A stretch of DNA of 64,000 nucleotides from Vicinamibacterales bacterium (lineage in GTDB: Bacteria > Acidobacteriota > Vicinamibacteria > Vicinamibacterales > UBA8438), in assembly GCA_965116765.1 (NCBI GenBank), contig OZ220718.1, forward strand, positions 4,096,848-4,160,847, given 5' to 3'. Position numbers and translations under genes: made by a program. The notes under the pieces were generated by a model, which did not search any database, had not been told where the DNA came from, and was given only the letters and a program-made list of their open reading frames with translations. Positions 2 through 43,664 of the stretch are shown piece after piece. Position 1 is the first letter of the stretch. Each line of letters starts with the position of its first letter.

Positions 2-43
2 ACCGTGACCCGCGCCATCATCGACATGCGGGAGGCCGCGTAG
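2..43 (+). CDS. 3' end of an unidentified upstream gene (partial, ...[13 protein letters not shown])
   Basis: The open frame runs off the left edge. Its TAG stop at 41-43 lies 2 nt before the fic-like ATG. Product unknown. Confidence 0.25.
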
Positions 44-45
44 CG

Positions 46-276
46 ATGAGCTTCGAGCCGAGCTTTACCGTCGCCCACGCCATCACGGCCGATCTCACGC
101 GGATCGAGCGGTCGCGGGGGTTCCTCGAGGCGGCGACGCTCTCCGAGGACGGGATCCGCGAGATGAGTGCGCGGGCGCTCGTCCTTGAGGCGCACCATAC
201 GACTCCCATTGAAGGCGCCAGGCTGACGTTGGAAGAGTTCGTCGCTGTGACACGGGAGTCGCGGCCAGAGCTGTGA
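46..276 (+). pseudogene. Fic/DOC family protein, N-terminal fragment only (76 codons)
   Basis: [65 protein letters not shown] matches the N-terminal domain of roughly 370-aa Fic proteins. Similarity stops near 245 and no Fic HxFx(D/E)GNGR core follows. Confidence 0.6.
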
Positions 277-527: not shown

Positions 528-745
528 TTACAAGGTGTTGAGCATCCGACGTAGCTCTCGCTCGCCGTACGTCTTCACAAGTGCGTCTTCCGTACGAAAA
601 AGCGTATAGGCGTTCACGTTCATCCGGTCCAATCGCTGCAATACATCGTCACGCTCGTGGCAGGGAAGCGTGAGCTTCCAGCAGATTTCACGGTCTATGG
701 TGTTATCATAAGTAACGGAGTTTGTGCCTGGAGCGAGTTCCTGCG
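528..745 (-). other. Out-of-frame continuation of the FRG gene (C-terminal ~70 aa)
   Basis: A different minus frame reads ...PQELAPGTNSVTYDNTIDREICWKLTLPCHERDDVLQRLDRMNVNAYTLFRTEDALVKTYGERELRRMLNTL*, with its stop at 528-530. Adding one C in the ttcc(c)gcag run near 740 would join it to the main frame. This stretch is visibly lower in GC than its flanks. Confidence 0.6.
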
Positions 746-1486
746 GAAATTGCGTAGCAGGTGCTCGTGCGAGACGTAACAGTAGGTCCCATCTCTGCCT
801 TCGTCACGGTACTGATACATGGCCGTCGTGTACGCCGATTGTTGATCGTAGTGTCTGGTCTCTCCCTTGACGGCATTCGGCCAATAGCGGATTCCGGTTT
901 CTTTTCCTGGTAATGCGCCCTTCCCGGCTGTATAGTCCATGTATGGGTATTTCGGGGGTCGCATCACGTAGATCGCCACGCGAGGCTGGTGGTCTTCGTG
1001 ACCGTTCGCGGTACCATTCCTTATGATGGCTTCTCTGAAGGCGAAGTACGCGGCTACGTAGGGCGAAAGCGACCAGTCCAGCAGCGGAGACGGGAACCCG
1101 TGGTGGCGGAGATAAACCGCGTATCGAAACGACAGCCCTGCGGTGTCCATCGGAAAGGGATCGTCATTCTTCGCGATGGCACTATAGTTCCTGTTCGTGT
1201 GCGTTTCTACGATGGCGTGCAGGTTCTGGGCGGCATCCTCGTACCCGGCAACGGGAACGTGGAGGGCGGGATGCGCTCGGGGGAATAGGGCGCGCCGATG
1301 TCGGTACAGTGTACTTTCGAGGCTCCACGTGCTGTCTCCATGGCCCCGGTACAGTACGTCGGAATCGAAAAGTCGCTCTTGGTGGAGCCACGTCTCGAAC
1401 GCCTGGAAGTCAGCGAGCGTTTTCTCGGCAATCCCGGTCATGATGGTGGGTGGGGGCCATGGGGGTGTCGGCGGGCGGGCGGTCAC
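695..1486 (-). CDS. FRG-domain protein (main reading frame; the C-terminus continues out of frame to 528)
   Basis: Track ORF. The motifs VLYRGHGDSTWSLESTLYR and YLRHHGFPSPLLDWSLSPYVAAYFAF are typical of FRG domains (Pfam FRG, recalled from memory). Alternative ATG at 1441. No clear SD. The 5' end overlaps the upstream ATPase gene. Confidence 0.7.
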   Translation of the reverse strand: MTARPPTPPWPPPTIMTGIAEKTLADFQAFETWLHQERLFDSDVLYRGHGDSTWSLESTLYRHRRALFPRAHPALHVPVAGYEDAAQNLHAIVETHTNRNYSAIAKNDDPFPMDTAGLSFRYAVYLRHHGFPSPLLDWSLSPYVAAYFAFREAIIRNGTANGHEDHQPRVAIYVMRPPKYPYMDYTAGKGALPGKETGIRYWPNAVKGETRHYDQQSAYTTAMYQYRDEGRDGTYCYVSHEHLLRNFRRNSLQAQTPLLMITP

Positions 1487-2519
1487 CCAGGCGGGGAAAT
1501 GTAACCTCGGGCGGGGGCTGCGGCGCCGGACGGGCGATGCGCCCGGGATGTGCGGAGGCCCGTCGCCGTTCCTGCCAGAGAGTCAGGCGTTCGGCGACGA
1601 TGACGGCGAGCGTCTTCTCGCCCATGGTCAACACCGCGCGCCGCCGCACGTCTCGGCAGAATTCCTCGGCTTCGGCGTAGCGGACGGCGCCGAGCCGCCT
1701 TGCGATCGTGGCTGGCGTCCGCCCCAACGGCTGGTGGAGCGATTCGGCGAATCGGGCGAGGTAGGCGGTCAGGTCCTTGCGCGTCGGGGGATTGAGAGCG
1801 AGACGCACCTGAAACCGCCGCCAGGCCGCCCGGTCGAGGAGTTCGGCGTGGTTCGTGGCCGCGACCACCACGGTGTAGCTCGGCAGGCCGTCGACCTGCA
1901 TGAGCAGGGAGGACACTACGCGCTTGATCTCGCCGGTCTCGTGAACGTCGCCGCGCTCCTTGCCCACGGCGTCGAACTCGTCGAAGAACAACACGCACGG
2001 CGTCGTGCGGGCGTAGTCGAACACGCGCTTGAGGCGCGACGCGGCCTCGCCGAGGAAGCTGCCGCTCAGCGCCTCGTAGCGCACGACGAAGAACGGCGCC
2101 GACAAGGCCTCGGCGATCGCTTCGGCCAACGAGGTCTTGCCGTTGCCCGGCGGCCCGACGAGCAGTACGCGGTGTCGCGGCTCGAGCGAATGGGTGCGCA
2201 GGACCGAGGCCCGGTGCTGTTCCTCGATCAGCTCCTCGCAGGCGCGGCGGGCGGGGGCGGTCAGGACGAGATCGGAGAGCTTCTTCCGCGGTGTCAACTC
2301 GGCGAGGAACCGGCGGTGCGGCCGCTGGTCGGGGTTGATGAACGCGGCGGCGGAATCGGCGCCGTTCACGCGCATGGCGTCGGTCAGCCGATCCGCCAGG
2401 ACGTTGTGGCGCTTCACCCGCTCTTCGGCGATGATCGCCTCGGCCACGGAAAGCGCCCGCGCCGTGTCGCCGCTCGATCCGGCCTTGACGAGCGAAACGA
2501 GGAGGTCGCTCCGCGCCAT
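1410..2519 (-). CDS. AAA+ ATPase (single classic AAA module with an N-terminal helical domain; IetA-like architecture)
   Basis: Walker A is LLVGPPGNGKTS and Walker B is VLFFDEFD. ATNHAELLDRAAWRRF covers sensor 1 and the arginine-finger region. The ATG at 2519 is the internal Met of track ORF 1410..2636 (MARSDLLVSLVKAGSSGD...). The 3' end overlaps the FRG gene by 32-77 nt. Confidence 0.85.
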   Translation of the reverse strand: MARSDLLVSLVKAGSSGDTARALSVAEAIIAEERVKRHNVLADRLTDAMRVNGADSAAAFINPDQRPHRRFLAELTPRKKLSDLVLTAPARRACEELIEEQHRASVLRTHSLEPRHRVLLVGPPGNGKTSLAEAIAEALSAPFFVVRYEALSGSFLGEAASRLKRVFDYARTTPCVLFFDEFDAVGKERGDVHETGEIKRVVSSLLMQVDGLPSYTVVVAATNHAELLDRAAWRRFQVRLALNPPTRKDLTAYLARFAESLHQPLGRTPATIARRLGAVRYAEAEEFCRDVRRRAVLTMGEKTLAVIVAERLTLWQERRRASAHPGRIARPAPQPPPEVTFPRLGDRPPADTPMAPTHHHDRDCRENAR

Positions 2520-2648
2520 TGCTGCTCCGCAGTCCGTGGGCCGTCGCCCGCACCGTCGCGTCTCGGGTCGGCACCGACAGGCGAGACAGCCCAGTCTACC
2601 GCGAATCGCGGCCAACGGCCCCGGCCAGCCCGGCATCTCCGATGCGCG

Positions 2649-2981: not shown

Positions 2982-3103
2982 GGCTTCACTCCCGCAGCTT
3001 CGAGGAACGCGACGATGGCGCGGACCGCACCGCGACCCGTGTCCAGCGCCGGGTGCGGCCCGTGCACGATCATCCGCGCCGCGGCGTTCACGGGCAAGGT
3101 CGA
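2978..3103 (-). pseudogene. hicA: HicA toxin, 3' remnant only
   Basis: ...TLPVNAAARMIVHGPHPALDTGRGAVRAIVAFLEAAGVKP* ends in an ATGA overlap with the hicB start, which is the classic hicAB coupling. The N-terminal half, including the GSH motif, is absent. It is replaced by the fic-junction-like repeat. Confidence 0.4.
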
Positions 3104-3175
3104 CGTGCGGGAGGCCGTCCCGCGATCAGCTTGGAGCCGATCTTCACGGTCACCCACGCTATCACTGCTGATATA
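3098..3175 (+). repeat. Diverged second copy of the 'upstream-gene end + fic start' junction seen at 23-100
   Basis: About 80% identity by eye over about 78 bp in the same orientation. It encodes only ...LEPIFTVTHAITADI of Fic. Confidence 0.7.
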
Positions 3176-3197
3176 TGTGGTAGCTTGTCTGTGCGAC

Positions 3198-3419
3198 ATG
3201 CCTCCGGTGACCATCCATCTGTCGGGCGACCTGATTGATGCCGCGCGCAAGGAGGCGCGCGGCGGGAACCGCAGCCTGTCGGCGTCGATCGGCGGATGGG
3301 TACAGGACGCCGTCGCGAGCGACTGGGCGCGGAGCTTCGTCGATCTCCTGCACCGGGGCTCCGGCGACCTAGTCGAACCCGACGATCCGCCGCCCGAGGA
3401 CATCGAGCCGCTTCGGTAA
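3198..3419 (+). CDS. Putative RHH/VapB-like antitoxin (73 aa)
   Basis: MPPVTIHLSGDLIDAARKEARGGNRSLSASIGGWVQDAV... has an RHH-like N-terminus. Its stop overlaps the ATG of a PIN-type stub (TAATG). Confidence 0.45.
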   Translation: MPPVTIHLSGDLIDAARKEARGGNRSLSASIGGWVQDAVASDWARSFVDLLHRGSGDLVEPDDPPPEDIEPLR

Positions 3420-3484
3420 TGATGCTCCTCGACACCCCGTTGATCAACGGTGCGCCTATGGGGCGTCCTTCCCGCCGCAGCTGA
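3419..3484 (+). pseudogene. VapC/PIN toxin, 21-codon N-terminal stub
   Basis: MMLLDTPLING... is the canonical PIN start (MLLDTNVLI-type). It is followed by an early stop, and no PIN core appears in any frame downstream. Confidence 0.4.
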
Positions 3485-3626
3485 GCCCGGATGACGCTGT
3501 AAGCGTTCGGCTGCCGCATCGTCGAAGGGCAACGACTTGAACGCGCGGCTGACAGTGTCGATGCAGGTTCTCTGCTGCCAGCGCGGAGTTGTGCGTCTGA
3601 TGGCTGCAAAGCAGAGGAGCGGGGCC

Positions 3627-3905
3627 ATGGCGAGCTTGAGTGTGCGGCGCCTGGACGGCGAGATCATGCGGCGGCTGAAGATCCGGGCGCAACGGGACGG
3701 CCTGTCCGTGGAGGAGACCGTGCGTCGCATCCTGGCCGACGCCGTCGTCGACGTCGAGCCGGTCGGGGCGATGATCCGCCGCATCGTCGGCGACGATGCC
3801 ATCGATTTCGACCTGCCGGCGCGTGAGGTCGACGATCCGATCGATTTCACCTCAGGCCGATACGGCCGGGACGATCCGGGTCTTTCGGTCCCGGAACCAC
3901 GCTGA
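3627..3905 (+). CDS. FitA/VapB-like RHH antitoxin (orphan)
   Basis: MASLSVRRLDGEIMRRLKIRAQRDGLSVEETVRRILADAV is a typical Arc/RHH antitoxin N-terminus. It uses the internal Met of track ORF 3537..3905. No toxin gene follows. Confidence 0.65.
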   Translation: MASLSVRRLDGEIMRRLKIRAQRDGLSVEETVRRILADAVVDVEPVGAMIRRIVGDDAIDFDLPAREVDDPIDFTSGRYGRDDPGLSVPEPR

Positions 3906-3910
3906 ACAGC

Positions 3911-6900
3911 GTGGCCGACACGACCGCGCGTCACCGTCCCATGACTCCCGACATCTCCGAACGGGCTTTCGAGGCCGCCATCGAATGCGCGCTGCTGCGC
4001 CACGGCCCCGACGCATGCCCGGGCGACGCAGCGGCGGTGCGAGAGTCGCCGCCGACGTTCGGCGACGACCCGGCGCCGGGCGGCTACCACCGGCGCCGGC
4101 CGGACGACTACGACCGCGCCCTCTGCCTGGTCCCGGCCGACGTGGTCGACTTCCTCCTGGCCACCCAGCCCAGGCAGTGGGAGAAGCTCACGCAGCACCA
4201 CGGCGCAGACGTGAAGTCGCGCTTCCTCGGCCGGCTCTCCCGCGAGATCGCCCGCCGCGGCGCCCTCGACGTGCTGCGCAACGGCGTCAAGGACTCGGGC
4301 TGCAAGTTCCGCCTCGCGTACTTCCGCCCCGCGAGCGGACTCAACGAGGAGCTGCAGCGCCTGCACGCGGCCAACCTCTTCGCCGTCGTGCGCCAGCTCC
4401 GCTTCAGCGAGCACGACGAGCAGAGCCTCGACCTCGCGCTCTTCCTCAACGGCATCCCCGTCTTCACCGCCGAGCTCAAGAACCCCCTCAACGGCCAGGA
4501 CGTCCGCGACGCCATCCGCCAGTACCGGGAGGACCGCGACCCCCGCGAGCCGCTCTTCGGGTATGCCCGCTGCCTCGCCCACTTCGCGGTCGACCCCGAG
4601 CAGGTGTTTGTCACCACCCGCCTCGCCGGGCCGAAGACCCGGTTCCTGCCGTTCAACCGGGGACGCTTCGGCGGGGCGGGCAACCCGCCGGTCCCGCCCA
4701 CCCGGGACGGCTTCCCCACCGACTACCTCTGGGAGGAGGTCTGGGCCCGCGACAGCGTGCTGGACCTCGTCCGCCAGTTCATCCACGAGGTCGAGCAGGA
4801 GGACGACCGCGGGCGCAAGACCGGCGCGCGCCACCTGATATTCCCGCGCTACCAGCAGCTCGACTGCGTGCGCCGGCTCGTGCGCCACGCGCGCGACCAC
4901 GGCCCCAGCGAGCGCTACCTCGTCCAGCACTCGGCCGGCAGCGGCAAGAGCTTCACCATCGCGTGGCTCGCCCACCGGCTCTCGGTATTGCACGACCGCG
5001 GCGACCGGCGCGTCTTCGACTCGGTCGTGGTGGTGACCGACCGGCGCGTCCTCGACCGCCAGCTCCAGCGCAGCATCCGGCAGTTCGAGCAGACCCTCGG
5101 GGTGGTGGAGAACATCGACCAGACCTCGCGTCAGCTCCGCGAGGCCCTCGAGGCGGGCCGCACCATCATCGTCACCACCCTGCAGAAGTTCCCGGTCATC
5201 GCCGAGCAGATCGGCGAGCTGCCCGGCCGGCGCTTCGCGGTGATCGTGGACGAGGCGCACTCGTCGCAGTCGGGCGAGAGCACCAAGAGCCTCAAGGCGG
5301 TGCTCGCGGCCGGCAGCCTGGAGGACGCCGAGCGGGAGGAGGCCGGCGCCCGGACCCCGGAGGAGGAGATCGACGACCGGGTCCACGACGAGATCCGCCG
5401 CCGGGGGCGCCTGCCCAACCTGTCAACGTTCGCGTTCACCGCGACCCCCAAGCCCAGGACCCTGGAGCTCTTCGGCCGGAAACGGCCCGACGACGGGAAG
5501 TTCGAGCCCTTCCACCGCTACAGCATGCGCCAGGCCATCGAGGAGGGCTTCATCCTCGACGTGCTCGGCAGCTACTCGACGTACAAGGCCTACTGGCGCC
5601 TGCTGAAGACGATAGAGGACGACCCGCGCTACGACCGGGGCAAGGCCGAGTACCTGCTCAAGTCGTTCGTCGAGCTGCACCCGCACGCCATCGGCGAGAA
5701 GGTCGCCATCTGCGTCGAGCACTTCGCCGCGCAGGTCGCCTCCGCCATCGACGGGCGGGCCAAGGCGATGGTGGTGACGCGCTCGCGCCTGCACGCGGTG
5801 CGCACCAGGCTCGCGCTCGACGCCTATCTCGCGGAGAAGGGCCACCCCTGGAAAGCGCTCGTCGCCTTCTCGGGCACCGTGAAGGACGGCGGCCAGGCCT
5901 ACACCGAGTCGGGCATGAACTCGGCCGGGCAGGACCGCGTCGTCGGCGAGCGGCAGACGGCGGCCGAGTTCGAGAAGCCCGACTGCCGCTTCCTGGTGGT
6001 CGCGAGCAAGTTCCAGACGGGGTTCGACCAGCCGCTGCTGCACACCATGTACGTGGACAAGAAGCTCGGCGGCGTGAACGCTGTGCAGACGCTGTCGCGC
6101 CTGAACCGCACCCACCCCGGCAAGCAGGGCGTGATGGTGCTCGACTTCGCCAACGAGGCCGAGGAGATCCGGAAGGCCTTCGAGCCCTACTACGAGACCA
6201 CCCTGCTCTCGGAGGCGACCGACCCCAACCTGCTCTACGAGGTGCAGGACCGGCTGCTCGGCTTCGGCGTGTTCGCGGAGGGCGACGTCGAGGCGTTCGC
6301 GCGGGTGTGCTTCGACCCCGGGGCGACGCAGGACAGGCTCTACGCGGCGCTCGAGCCGCCGCGCCAGCGCTTCGGCGCCCTCGCCGCCGACGAGGGGCGG
6401 GACTTCCGCGGCCAGCTCGGCGACTACGTGCGGCTGTACGCCTTCCTGTCGCAGGTGCTGACGTTCGCCGACGTCGATCTCGAGAAGCTCTACGTCTTCG
6501 CCCGGCACCTCCGCCGCCTGCTGCCGGTCGACGGCGACGAGCTGCCGCGCGAGGTGCAGCAGAGCATCGACATGGAGTCGTTCCGCATCCAGCAGACCAG
6601 CCGCGGCCGCATCGCGCTGGAACGGCAGGGCGGGGCGCTCGACCCCGCCGGCAGCAAGCCGCGCGAGCGGCGCCGCCCCCGAGGAGCTGGAGCCGCTGTC
6701 GCGCATCATCGAGGCCCTGAACGAGCGCTTCGGCCTGCAGCTCGGCCCCGAGCACCGCGTCGCCCTCGAGCAGATACGCTCGGCCCTCGACGGCGACGCC
6801 GGCCTCGACGCCAGCGCCCGCGTGAACACGCGCGAGAACGTGCGGCTGACCTTCGACCCCAAGGTCGAGGACAAGATTCAGGAGATCGTCGAGACCAACT

Positions 6901-7481
6901 TCGACCTCTACAAGCGCATCACCGACGACCCCGACTTCGGCCGGGCCCTCAAGAACTTCCTCTTCGACGACTACATCCGGCGGCACCGCCGCGTCGAGGA
7001 GCTGCTGAAGCTCCAGGAATCGAAGACCCTCGAGTTCAAGTCGAGCCTGCGCTGGAACGTGAAGGATGACCGCAAGGACGACCGCCGCGTCACCCACGCC
7101 GCCCTCAAGACCATCGCCGCATTCCTCAACACCGAGGGCGGCGACCTCCTGATCGGCGTCGCCGACGACCGCACCGTCCTTGGCATCGACCACGACCGCC
7201 TCGAGAACGACGACGAGTTCATGCGCCACCTCGCCCAGGCCGTCCGCAACGGCCTCGGCGCCCGCGCCGGGACGTGCATCGACCCGAAGACGCAGATCGT
7301 CGAGGGGAAGACGGTCTGCCTGGTGAGCTGCCAGCGGAGCCCCGAGCCGGTGTACCTGCGCTGGAAGGGGCTGGAGAAGACGGCCGAGGGTGATCTCTAC
7401 GTGCGGAGCGGCCCGGGAACGGTGCGGCTCGCCGGGGCGGATGTCGCCGAGTACGTCGCTACCCGATTCGACCCGCAATGA
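3911..7481 (+). CDS. hsdR: Type I restriction enzyme R subunit (HsdR) with a C-terminal AlbA_2/Schlafen-type domain; one frameshift near 6670-6680
   Basis: The N-terminal nuclease region reads DLALFLNGIPVFTAELKNP. Helicase motifs are HSAGSGKS, DEAH and FTATP. After GALDPAGSKPRERRR the frame switches at a CCCCC run. The next frame continues with PEELEPLSRIIEALNERFG...NTRENVRLTFDPKVEDKIQEIVETNFDLY, a typical HsdR C-terminus. Total length is 3n+1. Confidence 0.85.
7017..7481 (+). other. AlbA_2 (Schlafen-like 'divergent AAA_4') domain region of the hsdR reading frame
   Basis: ESKTLEFKSSLRWN...LKTIAAFLNTEGGDLLIGVADDRTVLGIDHD...YVRSGPGTVRL matches the AlbA_2 pattern E..EFK / AFaNt.GG.l.iGV.D (recalled from memory). 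Confidence 0.65.
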
Positions 7482-7487
7482 CGATGA
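7451..7487 (+). repeat. Left copy of an imperfect ~37-bp direct repeat flanking phd-parE
   Basis: GTACGTCGCTACCCGATTCGACCCGCAATGACGATGA covers the last codons and the stop of hsdR. Confidence 0.7.
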
Positions 7488-7570
7488 AGTCCGAGCCGGT
7501 GGGCGCCGGCAGCCGGCGCCGGGTTGCCGTCAGACCCGTTCATGGACTATATTCGGTCTCACGAGGCGCC

Positions 7571-7846
7571 ATGTCACTTTCCGAACAGATCAAGCCGATC
7601 AGCTACCTGAAGGCGCACGCTGCCGAGATCCTCCGCACGCTCGCGGACCGGTCCGAGCCCTTGATCATCACCCAGAACGGCGAAGCCAAGGCTGTCGTGC
7701 AGGACATCGACAGCTATGAGCGGACGCAGGAGACCGTGGCTCTGCTCAAGATGCTGGCCCTGGGCAACCGTCAGATCGAAGCCGGCCAGGTGCAGCCCGC
7801 CGGCAAGGTCGTTGCGCAGCTTCGGGACCGGCGACGGGCCGACTGA
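7571..7846 (+). CDS. Phd/YefM family antitoxin
   Basis: MSLSEQIKPISYLKAHAAEILRTLADRSEPLIITQNGEAKAVVQDIDSYERTQETVALLKML. It uses the internal Met of track ORF 7478..7846. Confidence 0.85.
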   Translation: MSLSEQIKPISYLKAHAAEILRTLADRSEPLIITQNGEAKAVVQDIDSYERTQETVALLKMLALGNRQIEAGQVQPAGKVVAQLRDRRRAD

Positions 7847-8173
7847 ATGTCCTTCGCGGTCCAGTTGACCGATGAGGCCGCCCACGACCTCGAGGAGATC
7901 TTCGACTACCTCTCCCGTCGAGACGCGCCAGGCAGGGCGGAGCACGTGCTGGAACGGATCGAGCAGGCCTTCCACGCGTTGTCCGCGTTCCCCGAACGCG
8001 GCAGCCACCCGGCGGAGTTGCTGGAGCTCGGGATTCGGGAGTACCGGGAGGTGTTCTTCAAACCGTACCGCATCATCTACCGCGTCATGGGAGACGGCGT
8101 CTACGTTCTCGTGATCGCGGACGGACGGCGTGACATGCGAACGTTGCTGCAACGGCGCCTGCTGCGCGTGTGA
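7847..8173 (+). CDS. parE: RelE/ParE family toxin
   Basis: Abuts the antitoxin stop. LTDEAAHDLEEIFDYL...YREVFFKPYRIIYRVMGDGVYVLVIADGRRD is ParE-like. Confidence 0.85.
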   Translation: MSFAVQLTDEAAHDLEEIFDYLSRRDAPGRAEHVLERIEQAFHALSAFPERGSHPAELLELGIREYREVFFKPYRIIYRVMGDGVYVLVIADGRRDMRTLLQRRLLRV

Positions 8174-8188: not shown

Positions 8189-8227
8189 TGTACGTCGCCA
8201 CCCGATTCGGCTTCAGGTGACGACGAT
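8189..8227 (+). repeat. Right copy of the direct repeat flanking phd-parE
   Basis: GTACGTCGCCACCCGATTCGGCTTCAGGTGACGACGA. The first 22 nt match the left copy at 20/22. It would encode an alternative hsdR end, ...YVATRFGFR*. Confidence 0.7.
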
Positions 8228-8585
8228 CACCCGGTCGTATCTCGAGTACATGGACTGGGACGTCCGGCTTCGGGTCGAGGACGAGGGGCGGCCCGTGCTG
8301 GGGGACCTGATTCAGGCCCACGACATCGGCGGTGATGGACCCGTCTACCGGGACGACAACATCGTCGTGACGGCGGCCGAGGTCCCGCACGGGGCGGCCG
8401 CGCCGTCCTACGCCTACCGCATCGACACGGCCGACGGCTCGGTCGTGTTCTCGGGCGACACGACGATGAGCGACGCCCTCGCCGAGCTCGCGGCGGGGGC
8501 CGACGTCCTGGTGCACGAGGTCGTCAGCGTCGAGGGCGCCGCCGCCATCGTGGAGCGCCTCGACCCGGCAACGCGGCGTTTCGAG
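8226..8585 (+). pseudogene. Internal fragment of an MBL-fold hydrolase paralog
   Basis: ITRSYLEYMDWDVRLRVEDEGRPVLGDL...AAIVERLDP corresponds to codons ~209-322 of the intact gene at 13169..14113. About 93% nt identity by eye over 342 bp. No N-terminus (HHHSDH motif) and no C-terminus. Confidence 0.85.
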
Positions 8586-8671
8586 CGTGGTGATGGGACG
8601 GGGCCGCTGTTGACGACGCGGCGAGTGCACGACAGATTCGTGCTCGGCGCGGCCGTGGAGTTGTGCGCTAC

Positions 8672-9397: not shown

Positions 9398-10087
9398 TCA
9401 GCGGTCGCGACGGTCGGGGTCGTCGTAGAGCCAGGGGCGGAGGCGCCGATCCCGTTCCCGCATCGCCTCGGCGCGGTCGCGATGATCGAGCCGTTCGTCG
9501 AGCGTCACGTCGACCCCCCGAAGCAGGCTCATGCGCCGTCTCGAGTCGATCTCGAAGGGGATGGGCGCCATGCCGGGGCGCTCGATGACCTGCCTCGCGA
9601 GGTCGGCCGTCACCTCGACCTCGGGATGCTCCCCGACCCGGTCGGCGAGCCCGGCCACCACCGGCTCGTCCAGGGTCACCGGGAGGAGCCCGAAGTCGAA
9701 GCAGTCGTCATGGAACACGGGACCGAAGCTGGGCGCGATGACCACGCGCATGCCGCACTGCAGGAGGCGGATGACCGCGAACGCCTGCTGGCTGCCCTGG
9801 CCGAAGTTCCGCCCCGCGATCAGGATCGAGGCGTCGCGATACGGCGCCCGGTTGAGGACGAAGTCCGGGTTCTCGGTGCCGTCGGGTCGGTACCGGAAGC
9901 CGTGGAAGGCATGCGGGCCGGTCCAGGACCCGTCGTGGGGGTGGTCCTCGAGAAGCAGGTCGCCCGGGGCGAGGTGCACGGCGTGCAGGTCCTCGAGATC
10001 GGCCCCGACCGGGGCGATGAGCTCGCTCTCGAGATCGGGCTGCCGGAACGGCGCCGCGATGCCGGTATGCCGCACGAACCGGGGCAT
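9398..10087 (-). CDS. LeuD-like small subunit of an aconitase-family dehydratase (paralog 1)
   Basis: MPRFVRHTGIAAPFRQPDLESELIAP...ILIAGRNFGQGSQQAFAV...VIAPSFGPVFHDDC is LeuD-like. The start is the last of three in-frame repeated ATGs. Confidence 0.8.
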   Translation of the reverse strand: MPRFVRHTGIAAPFRQPDLESELIAPVGADLEDLHAVHLAPGDLLLEDHPHDGSWTGPHAFHGFRYRPDGTENPDFVLNRAPYRDASILIAGRNFGQGSQQAFAVIRLLQCGMRVVIAPSFGPVFHDDCFDFGLLPVTLDEPVVAGLADRVGEHPEVEVTADLARQVIERPGMAPIPFEIDSRRRMSLLRGVDVTLDERLDHRDRAEAMRERDRRLRPWLYDDPDRRDR

Positions 10088-10232
10088 GGCTCGCGGCCGG
10101 AAGGGCGCCGCGGTGCCGGCATGCCGCGCGAACCGGGGCATGGCTCGCGGCCGGAAGGGCGCCGCGGTGCCGTCGTGCCGCACGAGCCGGGGCATGGCTC
10201 GCGGCCGGAAGGGCGCCGCGGTGCCGGTGTGC
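10044..10232. repeat. 54-bp tandem repeat, about 3.5 copies, repeating the leuD-like start region
   Basis: The unit ...GGCTCGCGGCCGGAAGGGCGCCGCGGTGCCGGCATGCCGCGCGAACCGGGGCAT places ATGs (minus strand) at 10087, 10141 and 10195, all in frame. The copies differ by point substitutions. Confidence 0.9.
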
Positions 10233-10380
10233 CATGGGTCGAGGCACGGCGCTCGCTGCCTCAGCAGCCCGTGGCGAAAGTCCCCGCTGCATTCCGGCGG
10301 CATGGGTCGATTCTCCCTCGTCGCGGCACGGGGTCTCGGCCCTTCGCCCTTCGGGCCGGTGCAGGGTTTCACCACGGGCG

Positions 10381-13168: not shown

Positions 13169-14113
13169 GTGACCAGCCGTCCCATCTCCCGCCGTCTCGT
13201 GGCCGCGGTCGGCATCGCGGCCCTGTTCGCCGCGTCCCCGCTCCCGGGACAGGAGCGTCCGCACCGGCTCGTCCTGCTCGGGACCGGCGGCGGACCGGCG
13301 GTCAAGGCGTCCCGCGCGCAGCCGGCGAATGCGGTGGTGGTGAACGGATCGGTCTACGTCGTGGACGCCGGCGACGGCGTCGCGCGGCAGATGGCCCTCG
13401 CCGGGCTGCCCGTGGTCGCCCTCCGGGCCGTCTTCATCACCCATCACCACTCCGACCACAACGCCGACTACGGCACGCTCCTGCTGCGGGCCTGGGCCAG
13501 CGGCCTGCGGCGGCCGGTGGCCACCTACGGGCCGCCCCCGCTGGAGCGGATTACCCGGTCGTATCTGGAGTACATGGACTGGGACGTCCGGCTGCGCGTC
13601 GTGGACGAGGGCCGGCCGGTGCTGGGAGACCTGATTCAGGCCCACGACATCGGCGGCGACGGGGTCGTCTACCGCGACGAGAACATCGCCGTGACGGCGG
13701 CCGAGGTCCCGCACGGGGCCGCCGCGCCCAGCTACGCCTACCGCATCGACACCACCGACGGCTCGGTCGTGTTCTCGGGCGACACGACGATGAGCGACGC
13801 CCTCGTCGAGCTCGCGGCGGGGGCCGACGTGCTGGTGCACGAGGTCGTCAGCGTCGAGGGCGCCGCCGCCATCGTGGAGCGCCTCGACCCGGGCAACGAG
13901 GCGCTCCTGCGCCACATCGTCGAGGCCCACACGACGGCCGAGGACGTGGGGCGGGTGGCGGCGCGGGCCGGCGTGGAGCGGCTCGTGCTCACGCACTTCG
14001 TGCCGTCGGGCCTTCCCGAGTTCGATCGGCCGGAGCTCTGGCGCGAGGGGGTCCGCCGCCACTTCGAGGGCGAGGTCATCGTCGGCCGCGACCTCCAGGA
14101 GATCGCCTTCTGA
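13169..14113 (+). CDS. MBL-fold metallo-hydrolase (RNase Z/ElaC-like), secreted
   Basis: The GTG start is preceded by AAGGAGG. Signal-like VTSRPISRRLVAAVGIAALFAASPLPG. HHHSDH motif present. Lies within track ORF 12926..14113. Confidence 0.85.
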   Translation: MTSRPISRRLVAAVGIAALFAASPLPGQERPHRLVLLGTGGGPAVKASRAQPANAVVVNGSVYVVDAGDGVARQMALAGLPVVALRAVFITHHHSDHNADYGTLLLRAWASGLRRPVATYGPPPLERITRSYLEYMDWDVRLRVVDEGRPVLGDLIQAHDIGGDGVVYRDENIAVTAAEVPHGAAAPSYAYRIDTTDGSVVFSGDTTMSDALVELAAGADVLVHEVVSVEGAAAIVERLDPGNEALLRHIVEAHTTAEDVGRVAARAGVERLVLTHFVPSGLPEFDRPELWREGVRRHFEGEVIVGRDLQEIAF

Positions 14114-20298: not shown

Positions 20299-21923
20299 GC
20301 CGGGTGCCCCACTGCCACTCGTAGCGCGCGCGCGACCGACGCCTCGTCGAACGACGGCCAGCGCGCGGCGACGTGCTGGTCGGGACGAATCAGGTAGACC
20401 GCCGAGGCCGCGGCGCCCAGGTAGCGCTCGCGCAACGCGTCGGAGGGGGCCGCCGCGGCGTCGAGGCGCAGCCCGTCGACCGGCAGTCCGTCGACCTCGA
20501 GGCGGTCGGGCGCCGGGGTGTCGACGGCCAGGAGCCGGAAGCGGCCGCCGAGAGCGTCGACGAGCCAGCCGTCCTCGAGCGGGACGTCCGAGGCCGGCGC
20601 GCCGGGCCGGGTGCGCCGCGGCAGGGCGGGGTGGTCGGGGCCGTTCAGCGGCGAGCCGTCGTGCACGCACGGCACCGACAGGCGGCCCGAGTTGACGAGG
20701 GGCCGGGCGAACGGCAGGTTCTCCGACAGGTCGAGCACCGCGTCGCGGAAGAGGCGGCTCGTCGCCGACTTGGGGGTGATGAAGTCGGTCGACCGCGTCG
20801 AGGCGACGAGGTTCTCGTCGGCGGCCTGGATGCGCTCGTGGTCGTAGCTGTCGAGCAGCCGCTCGGGCGCGAGTCCCTCGATGACGAGCTTGAGCTTCCA
20901 GCACAGGTTGTCGGTGTCCTGGAAGCCGCTGTTGGCGCCGCGCGCCCCGAACGGCGACACCTGGTGGGCCGAGTCGCCGGCGAAGACGACCCGACCGTGC
21001 CGGAACCGCTCCATGCGGCGGCACTGGAAGGTGTAGACCGACACCCACTCGAGCTCGAAGCGCACGTCGGGGCCCAGCATCGCCCGCAACCGGGGGACGA
21101 CGTTCTCGGGCTTCTGCTGCTCGTCGCGGTCGACGCCGCGGCCGAGCTGGAGGTCGATGCGCCAGACGTGGTCGGGCTGCTTGTGGAGCAGCGCCGACTG
21201 CCCCCGGTTGAACGGGGGGTCGAACCAGAACCACCGCTCGGTCGGAAAGTCGGCCTCCATGACGACGTCGGCGATGAGGAAGTTGTCCTCGAAGACGCGG
21301 CCGACGAAGTCGGCGCCGAGCATGCGCCGCACCGGCGAGCCGGCCCCGTCGCAGGCGAGCAGCCAGCCCGCCTCGAGGCGGTAGGGGCCGTCCGGGGTGC
21401 CGACCTCCACCCCCACCCCGTCGGGGCGCGGGTCGACGCCGACGACCTCGTGGCGTCCCCTGAGCTCGACGGGCTTGCCGAGGCGCTCGAGGGCGCGCAG
21501 CCGCTCGACGAGATACTGCTCGCAGTAGTACTGCTGCAGGTTGACGAAGGCCGGCCGCTTGTGCCCCGCCTCGGGCAGGAGGTCGAACCGGTAGACCTGC
21601 CGGCGGTCGAAGAAGACCTTCCCCGTGCTCCAGGTCACGCCCTTCTCCACCAGGCGGTCGCCGCAACCCAGCCGGTCGAGGATCTCCAGGGGCCGCTTGG
21701 CGAAGCAGATGGCGCGCGAGCCGCCGCTCACCCGGTCGTTGTCGTCGAGCACCACCACCGGCACGTCCTGCTGCGCGAGGTCGATGGCCGCGGCGAGCCC
21801 GATCGGGCCCGCGCCGACCACCACCACCGGGTGGAACGCGACGGGGTCGGCGTCCTGGTCCGGCGACCGCCGGTAGGGGTAGAGCGGCGCCGGGTCGGAC
21901 GCCGCGGCGTCAGGGCTGTCCAT
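20295..21923 (-). CDS. FAD-dependent aromatic-ring monooxygenase (MhpA/PheA-TfdB family)
   Basis: VVVVGAGPIGLAAAIDL (GxGxxG), CDGAGSPVR and FAGDSAHQVSPFGARGANSGFQD. Uses the internal Met of track ORF 20295..22574. Confidence 0.9.
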   Translation of the reverse strand: MDSPDAAASDPAPLYPYRRSPDQDADPVAFHPVVVVGAGPIGLAAAIDLAQQDVPVVVLDDNDRVSGGSRAICFAKRPLEILDRLGCGDRLVEKGVTWSTGKVFFDRRQVYRFDLLPEAGHKRPAFVNLQQYYCEQYLVERLRALERLGKPVELRGRHEVVGVDPRPDGVGVEVGTPDGPYRLEAGWLLACDGAGSPVRRMLGADFVGRVFEDNFLIADVVMEADFPTERWFWFDPPFNRGQSALLHKQPDHVWRIDLQLGRGVDRDEQQKPENVVPRLRAMLGPDVRFELEWVSVYTFQCRRMERFRHGRVVFAGDSAHQVSPFGARGANSGFQDTDNLCWKLKLVIEGLAPERLLDSYDHERIQAADENLVASTRSTDFITPKSATSRLFRDAVLDLSENLPFARPLVNSGRLSVPCVHDGSPLNGPDHPALPRRTRPGAPASDVPLEDGWLVDALGGRFRLLAVDTPAPDRLEVDGLPVDGLRLDAAAAPSDALRERYLGAAASAVYLIRPDQHVAARWPSFDEASVARALRVAVGHPA

Positions 21924-22131
21924 CGCCCTGCAGCTCGGCCCGCATGCGCCGGTCGCGCTCGGCCGTCCAGATGCGCGGGGTGTCGATGCCCAGCGCCTCG
22001 TCGCAAGCGCGGGCCACGTCACTATCCATCGCCCTGCAGCTCGGCCCACATGCGCTGGTCGCGCTCGGCCGTCCAGATGCGCGGGGTGTCGATGCCCAGC
22101 GCCTCGTCGTAGGCGCGGGCCACGTTGAACG
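21920..22131. repeat. 106-bp tandem duplication (2 copies) of the MBL-stop / monooxygenase-start junction
   Basis: CCATCGCCCTGCAGCTCGGCCC(G/A)CATGCGC(C/T)GGTCGCGCTCGGCCGTCCAGATGCGCGGGGTGTCGATGCCCAGCGCCTCGTCG... begins at 21920 and again at 22026. Confidence 0.9.
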
Positions 22132-40375: not shown

Positions 40376-41596
40376 ATGGCTCGACGGTGGGTGCTGGCCG
40401 GTCTGTGCGCGGCGATCGCGTCGCCGGGCGCCGCACAGCCGCTGACCGAGGCCGGGGCGGTGGCGCGGATGCGGGCGGAGTACACGCACGTGACCGCGCT
40501 GCGGCTCGGGGTGCGCGAGCTCGAGGCGGACGCCCGCGAACGGACCCTGGTCGCCAACCCGGCCGTCGCGTACACGCGCGAGGAGGCCGGCGCCGTCGTC
40601 GACGACTTTCTGCTCGTGAGCCAGGAGCTGCCCCTGTGGGGGCGGCGGGGGTTGCTGGGCGAGGCGGCCGGGCGCGGGGTCGCGGCCCGTTCGGCCGACG
40701 CCGACGCCCGCCTGCTGGCCATCGAGGCCGAGTTGCGCCTGGTGTTCACCGATCTCCTGCTCGCTCAGGAACGGGTGCAGTCGCTCGAGGCCGGCGTAGT
40801 GCGGCTCGACGCGCTGATTGCGGTGCTGCGGACGCGCGAGGAGGAGGGCGAGGGCTCGCGGTTCGACCGGCTGCGGGCCGAGCGCGAGGTGGCGGAGGTC
40901 GACGCCGACCTCGCGCTGGCCGGCATCGACCGGCGGCGGGCGCAGGCGCGGCTCGCCGCCTTCTTCGCCGCGGGGACCGACCCCGACGGGCTTGCCGCGG
41001 CGGGCCGTCTCGACGACCTTCCGGCCCCGCCGGTCCTCGCCCCCGCGGCTGGCGGGACGCCCGAACGCCGCCCGGACTATCGGGCGCTCGGCCTGGAGGG
41101 GGAGCGGTGGGGGGCCGAGGAGCGCGCGGCGCGGCGCCTGCGGCTGCCTTCCGCCCAGCTCACCGGGGGCATGAAGCGCAGCGGCGTGCTCGGGGCGATG
41201 GAGAGCGGGTTCGTGTTCGGCGCCTCGCTGTCGGTGCCGGTCTTCAATCGCGGCCAGGCGCAGGCGGCGCGGGCGGCGGCGGCCGGCGCGCGTGTCGAGG
41301 CCGAGCGCCGCAGCCTCGCCGCCCGTATCGCGGCCGAGGTCCACGCCGCCTCGGCCGCGGCGGCCGGCGCCCGCGAGCTGGCCGACCGCTATCGCGAGGA
41401 CTCGGTGGCGCGCGCGGCCGAGCTCGTGGCCATCGCGACCGCGGGCTACGAGGAGGGCGAGTTCGGCATCCTGGAGCTGCTCGACGCCCATCGGGTCGCC
41501 CTGAGCGCCGAGCTGCGGTCGCTCGAGCTGTCGGCGGCGGCGCGTCGGGCCGCCGTCGAGCTCGACCGCGCTTCGGGGCGGGAGTTGACGCCGTGA
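40376..41596 (+). CDS. TolC-family outer-membrane efflux protein (CusC/CzcC-like)
   Basis: Signal peptide, two coiled-coil repeat halves, and operon position ahead of the adaptor and RND pump genes. Confidence 0.8.
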   Translation: MARRWVLAGLCAAIASPGAAQPLTEAGAVARMRAEYTHVTALRLGVRELEADARERTLVANPAVAYTREEAGAVVDDFLLVSQELPLWGRRGLLGEAAGRGVAARSADADARLLAIEAELRLVFTDLLLAQERVQSLEAGVVRLDALIAVLRTREEEGEGSRFDRLRAEREVAEVDADLALAGIDRRRAQARLAAFFAAGTDPDGLAAAGRLDDLPAPPVLAPAAGGTPERRPDYRALGLEGERWGAEERAARRLRLPSAQLTGGMKRSGVLGAMESGFVFGASLSVPVFNRGQAQAARAAAAGARVEAERRSLAARIAAEVHAASAAAAGARELADRYREDSVARAAELVAIATAGYEEGEFGILELLDAHRVALSAELRSLELSAAARRAAVELDRASGRELTP

Positions 41597-41925
41597 GCCG
41601 CGGGCGGCCGGCGCCGGGCCCCCGTCGAGCTGGACAGTGTGTCGGGGCGGGAGTTGACGCCGTGAGCCGCGGGCGGCGGGTGCCGGGCCCCCGTCGAGCT
41701 GGACGGTGTGTCGGGGCGGGAGTTGACGCCGTGAGCCGCGGAGCGGCGCGGGCGCCGGGCCCCGTCGAGCTGGATGGCGGGGCGGGAGATGTCGCCGTGC
41801 TGTCGGCGACGGCGCCCGGGCCGCGATCGACCGTGTGTCGGGGCGGGAAGCGACGCCATGAGCTGTCGCGCGCGTCGGGCCGCGATTGAGTTCGGCCGTG
41901 TGTCGGAGCGGGAGAAGACGCCATG
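41555..41925. repeat. About 6 decaying tandem copies (65-71 bp) of the tolC-stop / next-gene-start junction
   Basis: The core GGGGCGGGAG(T/A)(T/A)G(A/T)CGCC(G/A)TGAG recurs near 41576, 41645, 41714, 41780, 41842 and 41908. Only the last copy supplies the real ATG at 41923. Confidence 0.9.
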
Positions 41926-43482: not shown

Positions 43483-43664
43483 CGGCGGACGGGCCGGTTG
43501 CGGCGCTCTCGCCGCGGTCGCCGGCCCACGGGCACACGCACTGACGGCGGACGGGCCGGTTGCGGCGCTCTCGCCGCGGTCGCCGGCCCACGGGCGCACG
43601 CATTGACGCCGGACGGGCCGGCTGCGGCGCTGCCGCGGGTGCCGGCCCACAGGAAACCGCACCG

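Follow-up and report, generated by a model that had tools for sequence, protein, structure and literature searches.

The window, that is, the whole stretch of 64,000 nucleotides which was analysed, carries towards its left end a gene for an HsdR protein whose C-terminal part runs into an AlbA_2 (Schlafen-type) domain (Table 1). In the list of open reading frames this gene was represented by an HsdR-like frame at 3911-7069, which switches frame, and by a second one at 6822-7481, the frame of which is open from about position 6681. The HsdR frame was listed from a GTG at 3911, whereas in the relatives the start is the ATG at 3941 (MTPDISERAF...). After repair of the single extra base, the protein was found to be 94-97% identical to the intact proteins of two related loci, L001 and L002.

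Table 1. Features of the hsdR-AlbA_2 locus, in window coordinates
Feature	Position	Strand	Evidence or remark
hsdS 3' end (last 13 codons and stop; gene body left of the window)	2..43	+	13-residue translation compared with HsdS C-termini ...AAVTGKIDVREAV.. in relatives
Relic of a second hsdS 3' end (..FTGKVDVREAVP..)	3042..3128	+	Part of direct repeat 21-93 / 3100-3172
hsdR-AlbA_2 gene	3941..7481	+	1179 aa without the extra base 6666; as written, the frame shifts at 6666
PD-(D/E)xK nuclease core, HsdR N-terminal domain, motif D...AELK	4367..4633	+	Pfam HSDR_N, E=9e-16
SF2 motor ATPase, first lobe, Walker A (GSGKS) and DEAH	4853..5566	+	Pfam SWI2_SNF2 3e-26, ResIII 7e-14, DEAD
Type I R-subunit domain 3 (second motor lobe)	5978..6127	+	Pfam T1R_D3-like, 2.4e-9
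C-terminal helical region of HsdR	6233..6986	+	tblastn against plasmid genes labelled 'type I restriction endonuclease (subunit R)', 27-35% identity
Single extra A breaking the reading frame	6666..6666	+	Absent from L001, L002 and L003
AlbA_2 / Schlafen-type nuclease domain (one lobe)	7017..7427	+	PF04326, AlphaFold2 model, Foldseek
Catalytic Ex4ExK motif, ESKTLEFK	7017..7040	+	Aligns with ESASIEFK of Schlafen structure 5yd0
GVADD motif, with the acidic residue conserved in Schlafen active sites	7155..7169	+	Aligns with GVDDE of 5yd0

The HsdR part of the protein has the expected order of domains. The check for an HsdR N-terminal domain, which had been suggested along with the original prediction, returned the HSDR_N match of Table 1; the DUF3387 profile (PF11867) suggested with it has no match in the window protein. 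The motif D-x(n)-ELK of the nuclease core was found in 77 of the 79 readable related genes, and the GSGKS and DEAH motifs of the motor are kept across them. By these motifs, the DNA nuclease of PD-(D/E)xK type is intact, and so is the SF2 motor. The relatives which lack AlbA_2 stop within the C-terminal helical region, at about amino acids 1001-1017.

The break in the reading frame had earlier been ascribed to an extra C in the run at 6676-6680. Removal of this C does restore the frame, but the DNA alignment with the three intact relatives places the extra base at A6666, in the context GCGCG[A]GCGG, and the native reading across the break is ...KPRGGAAPEELEPL... and not ...KPRERRRPEELEPL... 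The extra A lies outside any homopolymer and is not typical of sequencing errors. Programmed frameshifting was considered and rejected, because all the relatives encode the protein in one frame. Separate translation of the frame at 6822-7481 was also judged unlikely, since nothing resembling a ribosome-binding sequence lies ahead of it.

Across seven public runs of sponge or marine origin (X1, X2, X3, X4, X7 and X36 among them), A6666 was found in none of the contigs spanning the site. The best-matching run was X4, with 0.85 of the sampled words, a match which does not fix the source run with certainty. In this run the upstream arrangement peculiar to the window (3100-3948) is present without any difference, at a depth of 13-20; the run's two window-identical contigs across 6636-6696, of combined depth 14.4, are both without the A. 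The intact allele is the sole allele seen in the closest public communities, as sampled by contigs from near-source communities and with Logan contigs dropping rare variants. The likeliest origin of A6666 is an error in the assembly or consensus, or else a private allele that is rare, and the break in the window copy is probably an error of assembly. Seven genes downstream are intact, and frameshifts are thus not a general feature of the assembly.

With regard to the partner genes, it had been predicted that neither hsdM nor hsdS is present in the window and that both, if they exist, must lie to its left. No gene body of either was found by tblastn in the 64,000-nt window, and to this extent the first statement stands; the window does, however, hold the end of one hsdS and the relic of another (Table 1). 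The last 13 codons of hsdS at positions 2-43 indicate that the partner genes lie left of the window, as was supposed. In L002 a small ORF matching window positions 46-270 comes directly after hsdS. Moreover, 52 of 60 related loci carry hsdM and hsdS on the same strand and upstream of hsdR. Roughly half of these 52 have hsdS adjoining hsdR with a gap of not more than 51 nt; compact intact operons in which the two genes adjoin are those of L056 and L009. Furthermore, the identity of HsdM tracks that of HsdR across loci.

PADLOC gave REase_I matches, and the NCBIfam hsdM and hsdS matches for the partner genes fell below the curated cut-offs. The score of the window protein against TIGR00348, the NCBIfam hsdR subfamily, was 208.5 bits and the cut-off is 284.55. 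This sub-cut-off score marks a divergent and atypical family, the enzymology of which may differ from that of EcoKI or EcoR124I. Judged from sequence and gene order, the type I system has three genes, arranged as hsdM, variable insert, hsdS, variable insert, hsdR, of which the gene described here supplies the R (translocase-nuclease) subunit; HsdR-AlbA_2 belongs to a divergent, horizontally mobile family.

The fusion itself is genuine and widespread in uncultured bacteria, although the original prediction had implied that such an architecture is rare. At least 120 protein clusters with the intact fusion were found at 83-96% identity, and PF04326 was detected in all of the 120 best clusters, which are 1125-1184 aa long (1175-1184 aa in 118 of them). 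In species-representative genomes 587 related stretches were identified, and about 60 species genomes from many phyla cover the query from end to end. Among PLSDB plasmids the fused form occurs in no record, and the HsdR tail alone matches at ~30% identity. In one large clade of the family a single-lobe Schlafen/AlbA_2 nuclease domain has been added at the C-terminus, behind the usual HsdR tail.

The predicted run of HsdR into AlbA_2 was well supported by the domain searches. The tail 6681-7481 matched Pfam SLFN_AlbA_2 (PF04326) with 73.4 bits against a cut-off of 25.3 (E=3e-20), the corrected tail scored 72 bits, and the fusion is intact in every close relative. The AlphaFold2 model of the domain (pLDDT 95.8, pTM 0.91) has the two-layer alpha+beta fold of the Schlafen C-lobe, and in Foldseek the PDB ranks 1-31 were all DIP2311, SLFN5/11/12/13/14 or SAMD9 tRNase domains with a probability of 0.90-1.00. 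The full-length model (P0001 with 38 close relatives) had a mean pLDDT of 41.7, which is too poor for use. The ESKTLEFK pattern, noticed already in the original prediction, keeps the Schlafen catalytic motif: the Ex4(E/D)xK motif, as defined in PMC13056530, is present in 58 of the 60 related genes that reach it and is ESKTLEFK in 55, while D1075, the acidic residue of GVADD, is invariant in 38 relatives. The identity of the AlbA_2 domain to its relatives tracks that of the HsdR core, and this was read as selection on the domain. From its conserved residues and modelled fold the Schlafen domain looks active, and by analogy with its tested homologues it probably cuts tRNA.

In comparison to classical HsdR proteins (EcoR124I HsdR, 2w00, and EcoKI), the window family shares the N-terminal PD-(D/E)xK nuclease, the two-lobe SF2 motor with GSGKS and DEAH, domain 3, the helical C-terminal region and, in relatives, the operon with hsdM and hsdS. 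On the other hand, it has ~160 extra C-terminal residues forming the Schlafen-type nuclease domain. Overall similarity to 2w00, the best PDB sequence match, is low and the motor alone matches (E=1.6e-13). The partner HsdM is unusually long (703 aa) in comparison to classical type I systems, and the operons often contain inserted defence or toxin-antitoxin genes. The type ISP (LlaGI-like) enzymes are also different, as no N6_Mtase or Methylase_S domain was found by Pfam in the window protein and relatives have separate hsdM and hsdS genes.

The prokaryotic Schlafen (pSlfn) proteins RorSlfn5 and EcoSlfn7 (PMC13056530), Cash (PMC13462974) and SLFN-pAgo (10.64898/2026.05.29.728809) likewise have a single-lobe domain with Ex4(E/D)xK, fused to a larger candidate infection-sensing module in a defence-island setting. 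Their fusion partners are Ig-like, DUF262, Csx15, Ago or histidine-kinase-like, whereas the partner in the window protein is a type I translocase-nuclease that itself kills DNA; here the Schlafen domain is C-terminal and has no GHKL ATPase attached. Also comparable are the 'Schlatpase' (Schlafen+GHKL) fused to HsdS in Poribacteria (10.64898/2026.05.29.728809) and the Schlafen-methyltransferase fusions (PMC13462974, cluster 3), in which a Schlafen domain is covalently joined to a subunit of a restriction-modification (R-M) system and which similarly come from sponge symbionts and uncultured bacteria. They involve the S or M subunit and not the R subunit, the GHKL ATPase has no counterpart in our protein, and they, like the fusion to HsdR, are known from genome surveys only. 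The fusion had been considered uncharacterised. In the literature searched, which did not extend to the supplementary 55-architecture tables of the pSlfn paper (PMC13056530), we found no paper describing or experimentally testing an HsdR-Schlafen fusion, but the link between prokaryotic Schlafen domains and R-M has already been catalogued at survey level (PMC13462974, 10.64898/2026.05.29.728809).

A further likeness is to PrrC in the EcoprrI type Ic hsd locus and to RloC (PMC1484252, PMC3458546), where a tRNA-directed nuclease is coupled, both genetically and physically, to a type I enzyme; for HsdR-Schlafen such coupling is proposed to provide a second line of defence once restriction has been engaged or blocked. 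In our protein the coupling is covalent and to HsdR, whereas PrrC is a polypeptide of its own, which combines an ABC-ATPase domain with a nuclease domain of an unrelated kind. Neither the PrrC/RloC ABC-ATPase N-domain nor the PrrC-type ACNase domain was found in the window protein by Pfam and NCBIfam scans. The resemblance to PrrC/RloC is one of supposed function and not of family membership.

Papers of 2025-26 describe prokaryotic Schlafen domains as sensor-activated tRNases. Sensor-fused pSlfn domains cleave tRNA and defend against phage (PMC13056530), as do Cash (PMC13462974) and SLFN-pAgo (10.64898/2026.05.29.728809), and in the last study the single-lobe domains were found to dimerise, mimicking the mammalian two-lobe nuclease. 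Schlafen RNases have also been proposed as back-up effectors of BREX (PMC12839542). Our main reading, to which we give a probability of roughly 55%, is that a divergent type I HsdR carries the Schlafen domain as a second RNA-directed effector switched by the state of the restriction enzyme, with A6666 being an artefact or a private allele. Purely by analogy, we infer both the RNA cleavage and its trigger. The Schlafen domain, most likely a tRNase, would be held silent inside the R2M2S1 complex and become activated by the state of this complex. Two triggers may be proposed. Two HsdR tails could meet on foreign unmodified DNA and rebuild a two-lobed Schlafen nuclease, as single-lobe bacterial domains do by dimerising, or a phage anti-restriction protein could disable the complex. 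Translation would then be arrested, as a second line of defence behind DNA restriction, and HsdR-Schlafen would be the covalent counterpart of PrrC, the anticodon nuclease that EcoprrI guards. More tentatively, and with less than even odds, this may be a one-polypeptide type I enzyme attacking two nucleic acids, in which unmodified foreign DNA or inhibition by phage anti-restriction directly licenses tRNA cleavage by the Schlafen domain. Restriction and abortive infection would then be coupled in a single complex, a hard-wired version of the PrrC-EcoprrI guard that has spread horizontally across many phyla of uncultured bacteria.

Other explanations concern the gene as a whole. The frameshift may be real in the window strain, leaving a pseudogene or a split gene, in which ~908 native residues of a truncated HsdR are followed by a tail out of frame and perhaps, as a separate product, by an AlbA_2 ORF of 219 aa from the GTG at 6822. 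Besides the position of the A outside any homopolymer, the true decay and rearrangement nearby (the remnant of a PIN toxin at 3451-3562, a partial copy of MBL at 8226-8588 and the relic hsdS end) and the damage seen in other relatives (L047 is interrupted and L057 is truncated) agree with this, and contigs cannot prove that a rare variant is absent. Yet the A appeared in no contig of the seven runs, every path over the site in X4 lacks it while the strain-specific flanks are present at the same depth, no Shine-Dalgarno-like sequence lies upstream of GTG 6822, and the remaining gene has no further lesions at its 94-97% identity to intact relatives; a genuine break is rather unlikely. It is highly improbable that the protein is a stand-alone helicase-nuclease defence protein like Hna or Nhi, being HsdR-like only and having no need for HsdM or HsdS. 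The score under the curated hsdR cut-off, the lack of an hsdM or hsdS body in the window and the other genes between hsdS and hsdR in many loci would suit such a protein, but the same-strand hsdM and hsdS upstream in most related loci, the tracking of HsdR identity by HsdM, the abutting of hsdS and hsdR in about half of the loci and the hsdS 3' end at the left edge of the window all point to a type I system.

The remaining explanations accept the type I enzyme and differ on the role of its tail. AlbA_2 may be a non-catalytic nucleic-acid-binding or regulatory module, which grips DNA or ssDNA in translocation or senses a ligand and tunes HsdR without cutting RNA. The fold also matches the SAMD9 'DBD with DNA' structure 7ksp, first solved as a DNA-binding domain, some such proteins are named 'putative DNA binding domain-containing protein', and several mammalian Schlafens have lost the catalytic residues and have non-nuclease roles (PMC13462974). 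The same SAMD9 domain, however, is now deposited as a tRNase domain (9o0d), and pure binding would not require the Ex4ExK motif and the GV-DD acidic residue, which are almost invariant across phyla; we regard this role as unlikely. A purely DNA-directed enzyme, with AlbA_2 as a second DNA nuclease making or processing the double-strand break beside the PD-(D/E)xK site, is more doubtful still. The domain is attached to HsdR, a translocase that works on DNA, while SLFN5 and related domains bind DNA (the SLFN5 N-domain entry 7cux is described as ssRNA-cleaving and DNA-binding). Against it, all prokaryotic Schlafen domains assayed to date cut tRNA (PMC13056530, PMC13462974, 10.64898/2026.05.29.728809), no DNase is missing because the PD-(D/E)xK site is fully conserved, and the sister systems without AlbA_2 share the same hsdMSR set.

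If the Schlafen domain is an active and regulated tRNase, the family would demonstrate that a classical restriction enzyme can bring its own back-up by abortive infection, with translation shut-off tied to the sensing of DNA by a translocating R-M complex. In PARIS and PrrC-EcoprrI an anti-restriction event triggers a tRNase, and this logic would be extended by HsdR-Schlafen. The helicase-like domain of human SLFN11 binds ssDNA; how a DNA motor switches on a Schlafen nuclease is the same question in that protein, and the family would offer a one-operon system for it. If the domain is inactive or DNA-binding only, the divergent HsdR would simply carry an ordinary accessory domain.

For annotation, the copy in the window needs a flag for the frameshift at 6666. 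NCBI names members of the family 'DEAD/DEAH box helicase' or 'putative DNA binding domain-containing protein', and more precise names than these are possible. Transcript contigs over 6400-7000 were found in the metatranscriptome run X2 and were counted as support for expression.

The hsdR-AlbA_2 gene of the window (G+C 71%) lies in two frames. The main ORF product matched the Pfam families HSDR_N (E=9e-16), SWI2_SNF2 (E=3e-26), ResIII (E=7e-14) and T1R_D3-like (E=2.4e-9), and the second-frame product matched PF04326 with E=3e-20 and 73.4 bits vs a gathering score of 25.3. The frames overlap at about 6660-6680, so that a one-base change fuses them, and the original prediction of an HsdR running into a Schlafen-type AlbA_2 domain is borne out; PF11867, which it had suggested for checking, gave no match in Pfam scans of the protein. 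PADLOC type I REase models matched the window HsdR, and the NCBIfam hsdR subfamily model matched below its curated cut-off (208.5 vs 284.55 bits). EcoR124I HsdR was the sole solved sequence relative, via the motor domain (E=1.6e-13). Starting from ATG 3941, a start codon shared with relatives, the repaired protein comprises 1179 aa.

Features at and around the hsdR-AlbA_2 locus (window positions; L001 and L002 are related loci in other genomes)
Feature	Position	Strand	Remarks
hsdS 3' end	first 43 bases	+	last 13 HsdS residues, by translation
Direct repeat, 81%	21-93 / 3100-3172		hsdS 3' end and small-ORF start
Small ORF	46-276		counterpart of ORF directly after hsdS in L002
FRG-domain protein	695-1486	-	PF08867, PADLOC PDC-S15; follows IetA-like gene
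IetA-like AAA ATPase	1410-2636	-	PADLOC IetA E=9.5e-143
Relic of second HsdS C-terminus	3042-3128		..FTGKVDVREAVP..
Antitoxin-like gene of PIN toxin	3171-3416		intact
PIN toxin remnant	3451-3562	-	inverted, frameshifted; within 3171-3905
FitA-like RHH gene	3627-3905		intact
hsdR-like ORF	3911-7069	+	four type I R-subunit Pfam families matched
Second frame, open	~6681 to stop 7481	+	product matches SLFN_AlbA_2 (PF04326)
Phd/YefM antitoxin	7478-7846		start overlaps hsdR stop (ATGA)
ParE toxin	7847-8173		pairs with Phd/YefM antitoxin directly after hsdR
Partial copy of Apyc1-like gene	8226-8588		residues 128-248, 86-90% identical to L001/L002 proteins
Metallo-beta-lactamase-fold, Anti-Pycsar Apyc1-like gene	13169-14110		intact

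Alignment of the gene DNA with three intact relatives (L001, 94% identical; L002, 96%; L003, 82%) identified an extra A at 6666, GCGCG[A]GCGG, as the sole frame-breaking difference. One extra base was correctly predicted to break the frame, but its placement as a C in the run at 6676-6680 is rejected by this alignment. Without A6666 the translation is ...GSKPRGGAAPEELEPLSRII... and matches L001 exactly over that stretch. Programmed frameshifting is excluded, because all relatives encode the protein in a single frame.

The public runs containing window sequence are sponge and marine metagenomes. One of them, X4, contains 0.85 of the words sampled from another part of the window, and also the window-specific upstream arrangement at 3100-3948 (0 differences, depth 13-20). 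A6666 is absent from all three X4 contigs spanning the site, two of which otherwise match the window exactly (summed depth 14.4), and from the site-spanning contigs of five other runs (X1, X2, X3, X7 and X36), X2 being a metatranscriptome. These contigs speak against a real A6666 that makes hsdR a pseudogene in the window strain, which is an unlikely reading, even though the base sits outside any homopolymer and true decay is seen near the locus in the PIN remnant and the partial gene copy. A6666 was found on no contig in any run searched; rare variants can escape contigs, and the absence of one cannot be proven from them. Past hsdR, seven genes with 97-100% identity to L002 are intact, thus frameshifts are not general in the assembly. 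The extra A is therefore taken as an assembly error or a rare private allele (probability about 0.7-0.75), and the window copy itself adds only a probable one-base error.

The HsdR-AlbA_2 fusion is real, common in databases and unnamed. A protein search with the repaired protein scored 8000 candidates, and in the best 120 clusters inspected (83-96% identity) PF04326 and HsdR domains occurred together in every case; 118 of these were 1175-1184 aa long and the other two 1125 and 1148 aa. Those that a source names are called 'DEAD/DEAH box helicase' or 'putative DNA binding domain-containing protein'. Collections with one genome per species contain 587 stretches coding for relatives, and about 60 of the best 80 match the query over its whole length, with 65-95% identity, from Vicinamibacterales and other Acidobacteriota (93-95%; the likely lineage of the window) and Dehalococcoidia (82%) to Gemmatimonadota, Gammaproteobacteria, Actinomycetota, Nitrospirota, Planctomycetota, Spirochaetia, Latescibacterota and others. 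When the HsdR core was placed in a rough neighbour-joining tree, built without bootstrap support, the grouping did not follow taxonomy, which indicates spread of the family by horizontal transfer. Forms lacking AlbA_2 (about 1001-1017 aa) appear there as one outgroup and two nested lineages, as if the domain had been gained once and lost at least twice. No PLSDB plasmid was found to carry the fusion. Among the relatives, protein P0172 (1329 aa) bears an extra C-terminal S24 (LexA-like) peptidase domain, the gene at locus L047 (10001-14706) is interrupted by about 1.2 kb, and that at locus L057 is cut off inside the AlbA_2 domain.

The gene very probably belongs to a type I restriction-modification system. 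An HsdM of 703 aa and an HsdS of about 460 aa were found upstream in the first three contexts retrieved, with AbiEi/AbiEii, IetA/IetS and toxin-antitoxin genes between hsdS/hsdM and hsdR. Of 60 distinct loci for which 8 kb or more of upstream sequence was available, 52 have both hsdM and hsdS upstream on the same strand, and in about half of those hsdS adjoins hsdR (gap of at most 51 nt); HsdM identity follows HsdR identity across the loci. The hsdM and hsdS bodies were not found within the 64-kb window; the hsdS 3' end and the L002-type small ORF at its left edge indicate that they lie just left of it, as predicted. Over L001-L003 and 52 related loci, the median hsdM-hsdS gap is 1.7 kb; in L001-L003 the gap holds AbiEi_4-domain genes, plus AbiEii in two, which may form a fourth operon component or a module that is embedded there recurrently.

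The AlbA_2 domain aligns by sequence with the catalytic C-lobe of mammalian Schlafens; in the alignment to 5yd0, ESKTLEFK corresponds to ESASIEFK and IGVADD to FGVDDE. Ex4ExK is the defined Schlafen active site (PMC13056530), and Ex4(E/D)xK is present in 58 of the 60 related genes reaching the motif, exactly as ESKTLEFK in 55. D1075 never varies among 38 close relatives, in which conservation of E1026, E1031 and K1033 is 90% or higher. An AlphaFold2 model of 6972-7478 (85 diverse sequences) reached pLDDT 95.8 and pTM 0.91, and in a Foldseek search of the PDB each of its best 31 matches was an AlbA_2, Schlafen or SAMD9 tRNase domain. Outside the family, the closest AlbA_2 relatives (about 45% identity) lie at the C-termini of unrelated proteins, namely proteins of about 430 aa without other domain, an SNF2 helicase, an S1-domain protein, a TPR protein and an HsdR also bearing an S24 peptidase, which points to a portable module.

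Sequence comparison shows one type I operon polypeptide with a predicted intact DNA nuclease, motor and Schlafen active site, all under purifying selection. Type I enzymes contain two HsdR subunits, and their cleavage follows collision or stalling. The prokaryotic Schlafen domains tested so far, RorSlfn5 (PMC13056530), Cash (PMC13462974) and SLFN-pAgo (10.64898/2026.05.29.728809), are all tRNases turned on by a fused sensor, and in SLFN-pAgo single-lobe bacterial domains are activated by dimerising into a two-lobe architecture (10.64898/2026.05.29.728809). PrrC is a tRNase silenced by a type I enzyme and freed by a phage anti-restriction factor (PMC1484252). For these reasons the Schlafen domain would be an RNA-directed, probably tRNA-directed, effector governed by the state of the restriction complex; its trigger could be the complex engaging foreign DNA, or anti-restriction. 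Less likely rival readings make AlbA_2 a DNA-binding accessory or a second DNase, or the whole protein a stand-alone helicase-nuclease. The original interpretation is partly supported.

Links between prokaryotic Schlafens and restriction-modification (R-M) systems are already in surveys, as R-M-associated clusters and R-M methyltransferases fused to Schlafen domains (PMC13462974) and, in Poribacteria, an HsdS joined to a Schlafen+GHKL module (10.64898/2026.05.29.728809); Schlafen RNases were also proposed as BREX back-up effectors (PMC12839542). No paper describing or testing an HsdR-Schlafen fusion was found, the surveys' supplementary architecture tables lying outside the search. The fusion is hence a variant on a known link, with HsdR as the new partner; the architecture had been thought uncharacterised, which agrees with this search, but it is common in databases. 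It would gain importance if a coupling of DNA targeting to tRNA targeting were proven.

The direct repeat and the relic hsdS end suggest that the roughly 3 kb between the repeats, with the small ORF, FRG gene, IetA-like gene and HicB, entered between hsdS and hsdR as a defence cassette. In syntenic L001 an IetS S8 protease occupies the slot of the FRG gene, and the window genes may represent an Iet-type variant whose effector differs. L001 and L002 carry a PIN toxin gene directly upstream of hsdR, and the Phd/YefM-ParE pair is absent after hsdR in these closest relatives. Further downstream, a 54-nt tandem repeat (3.4-3.9 copies, 10042-10250) lies within the 5' portion of an ORF resembling the aconitase small subunit and encodes the repeated peptide AAPFRPRAMPRF.RH; other tandem arrays lie at 21919-22125, 41533-41799 and 43438-43650, with periods of 106, 69 and 62 nt.
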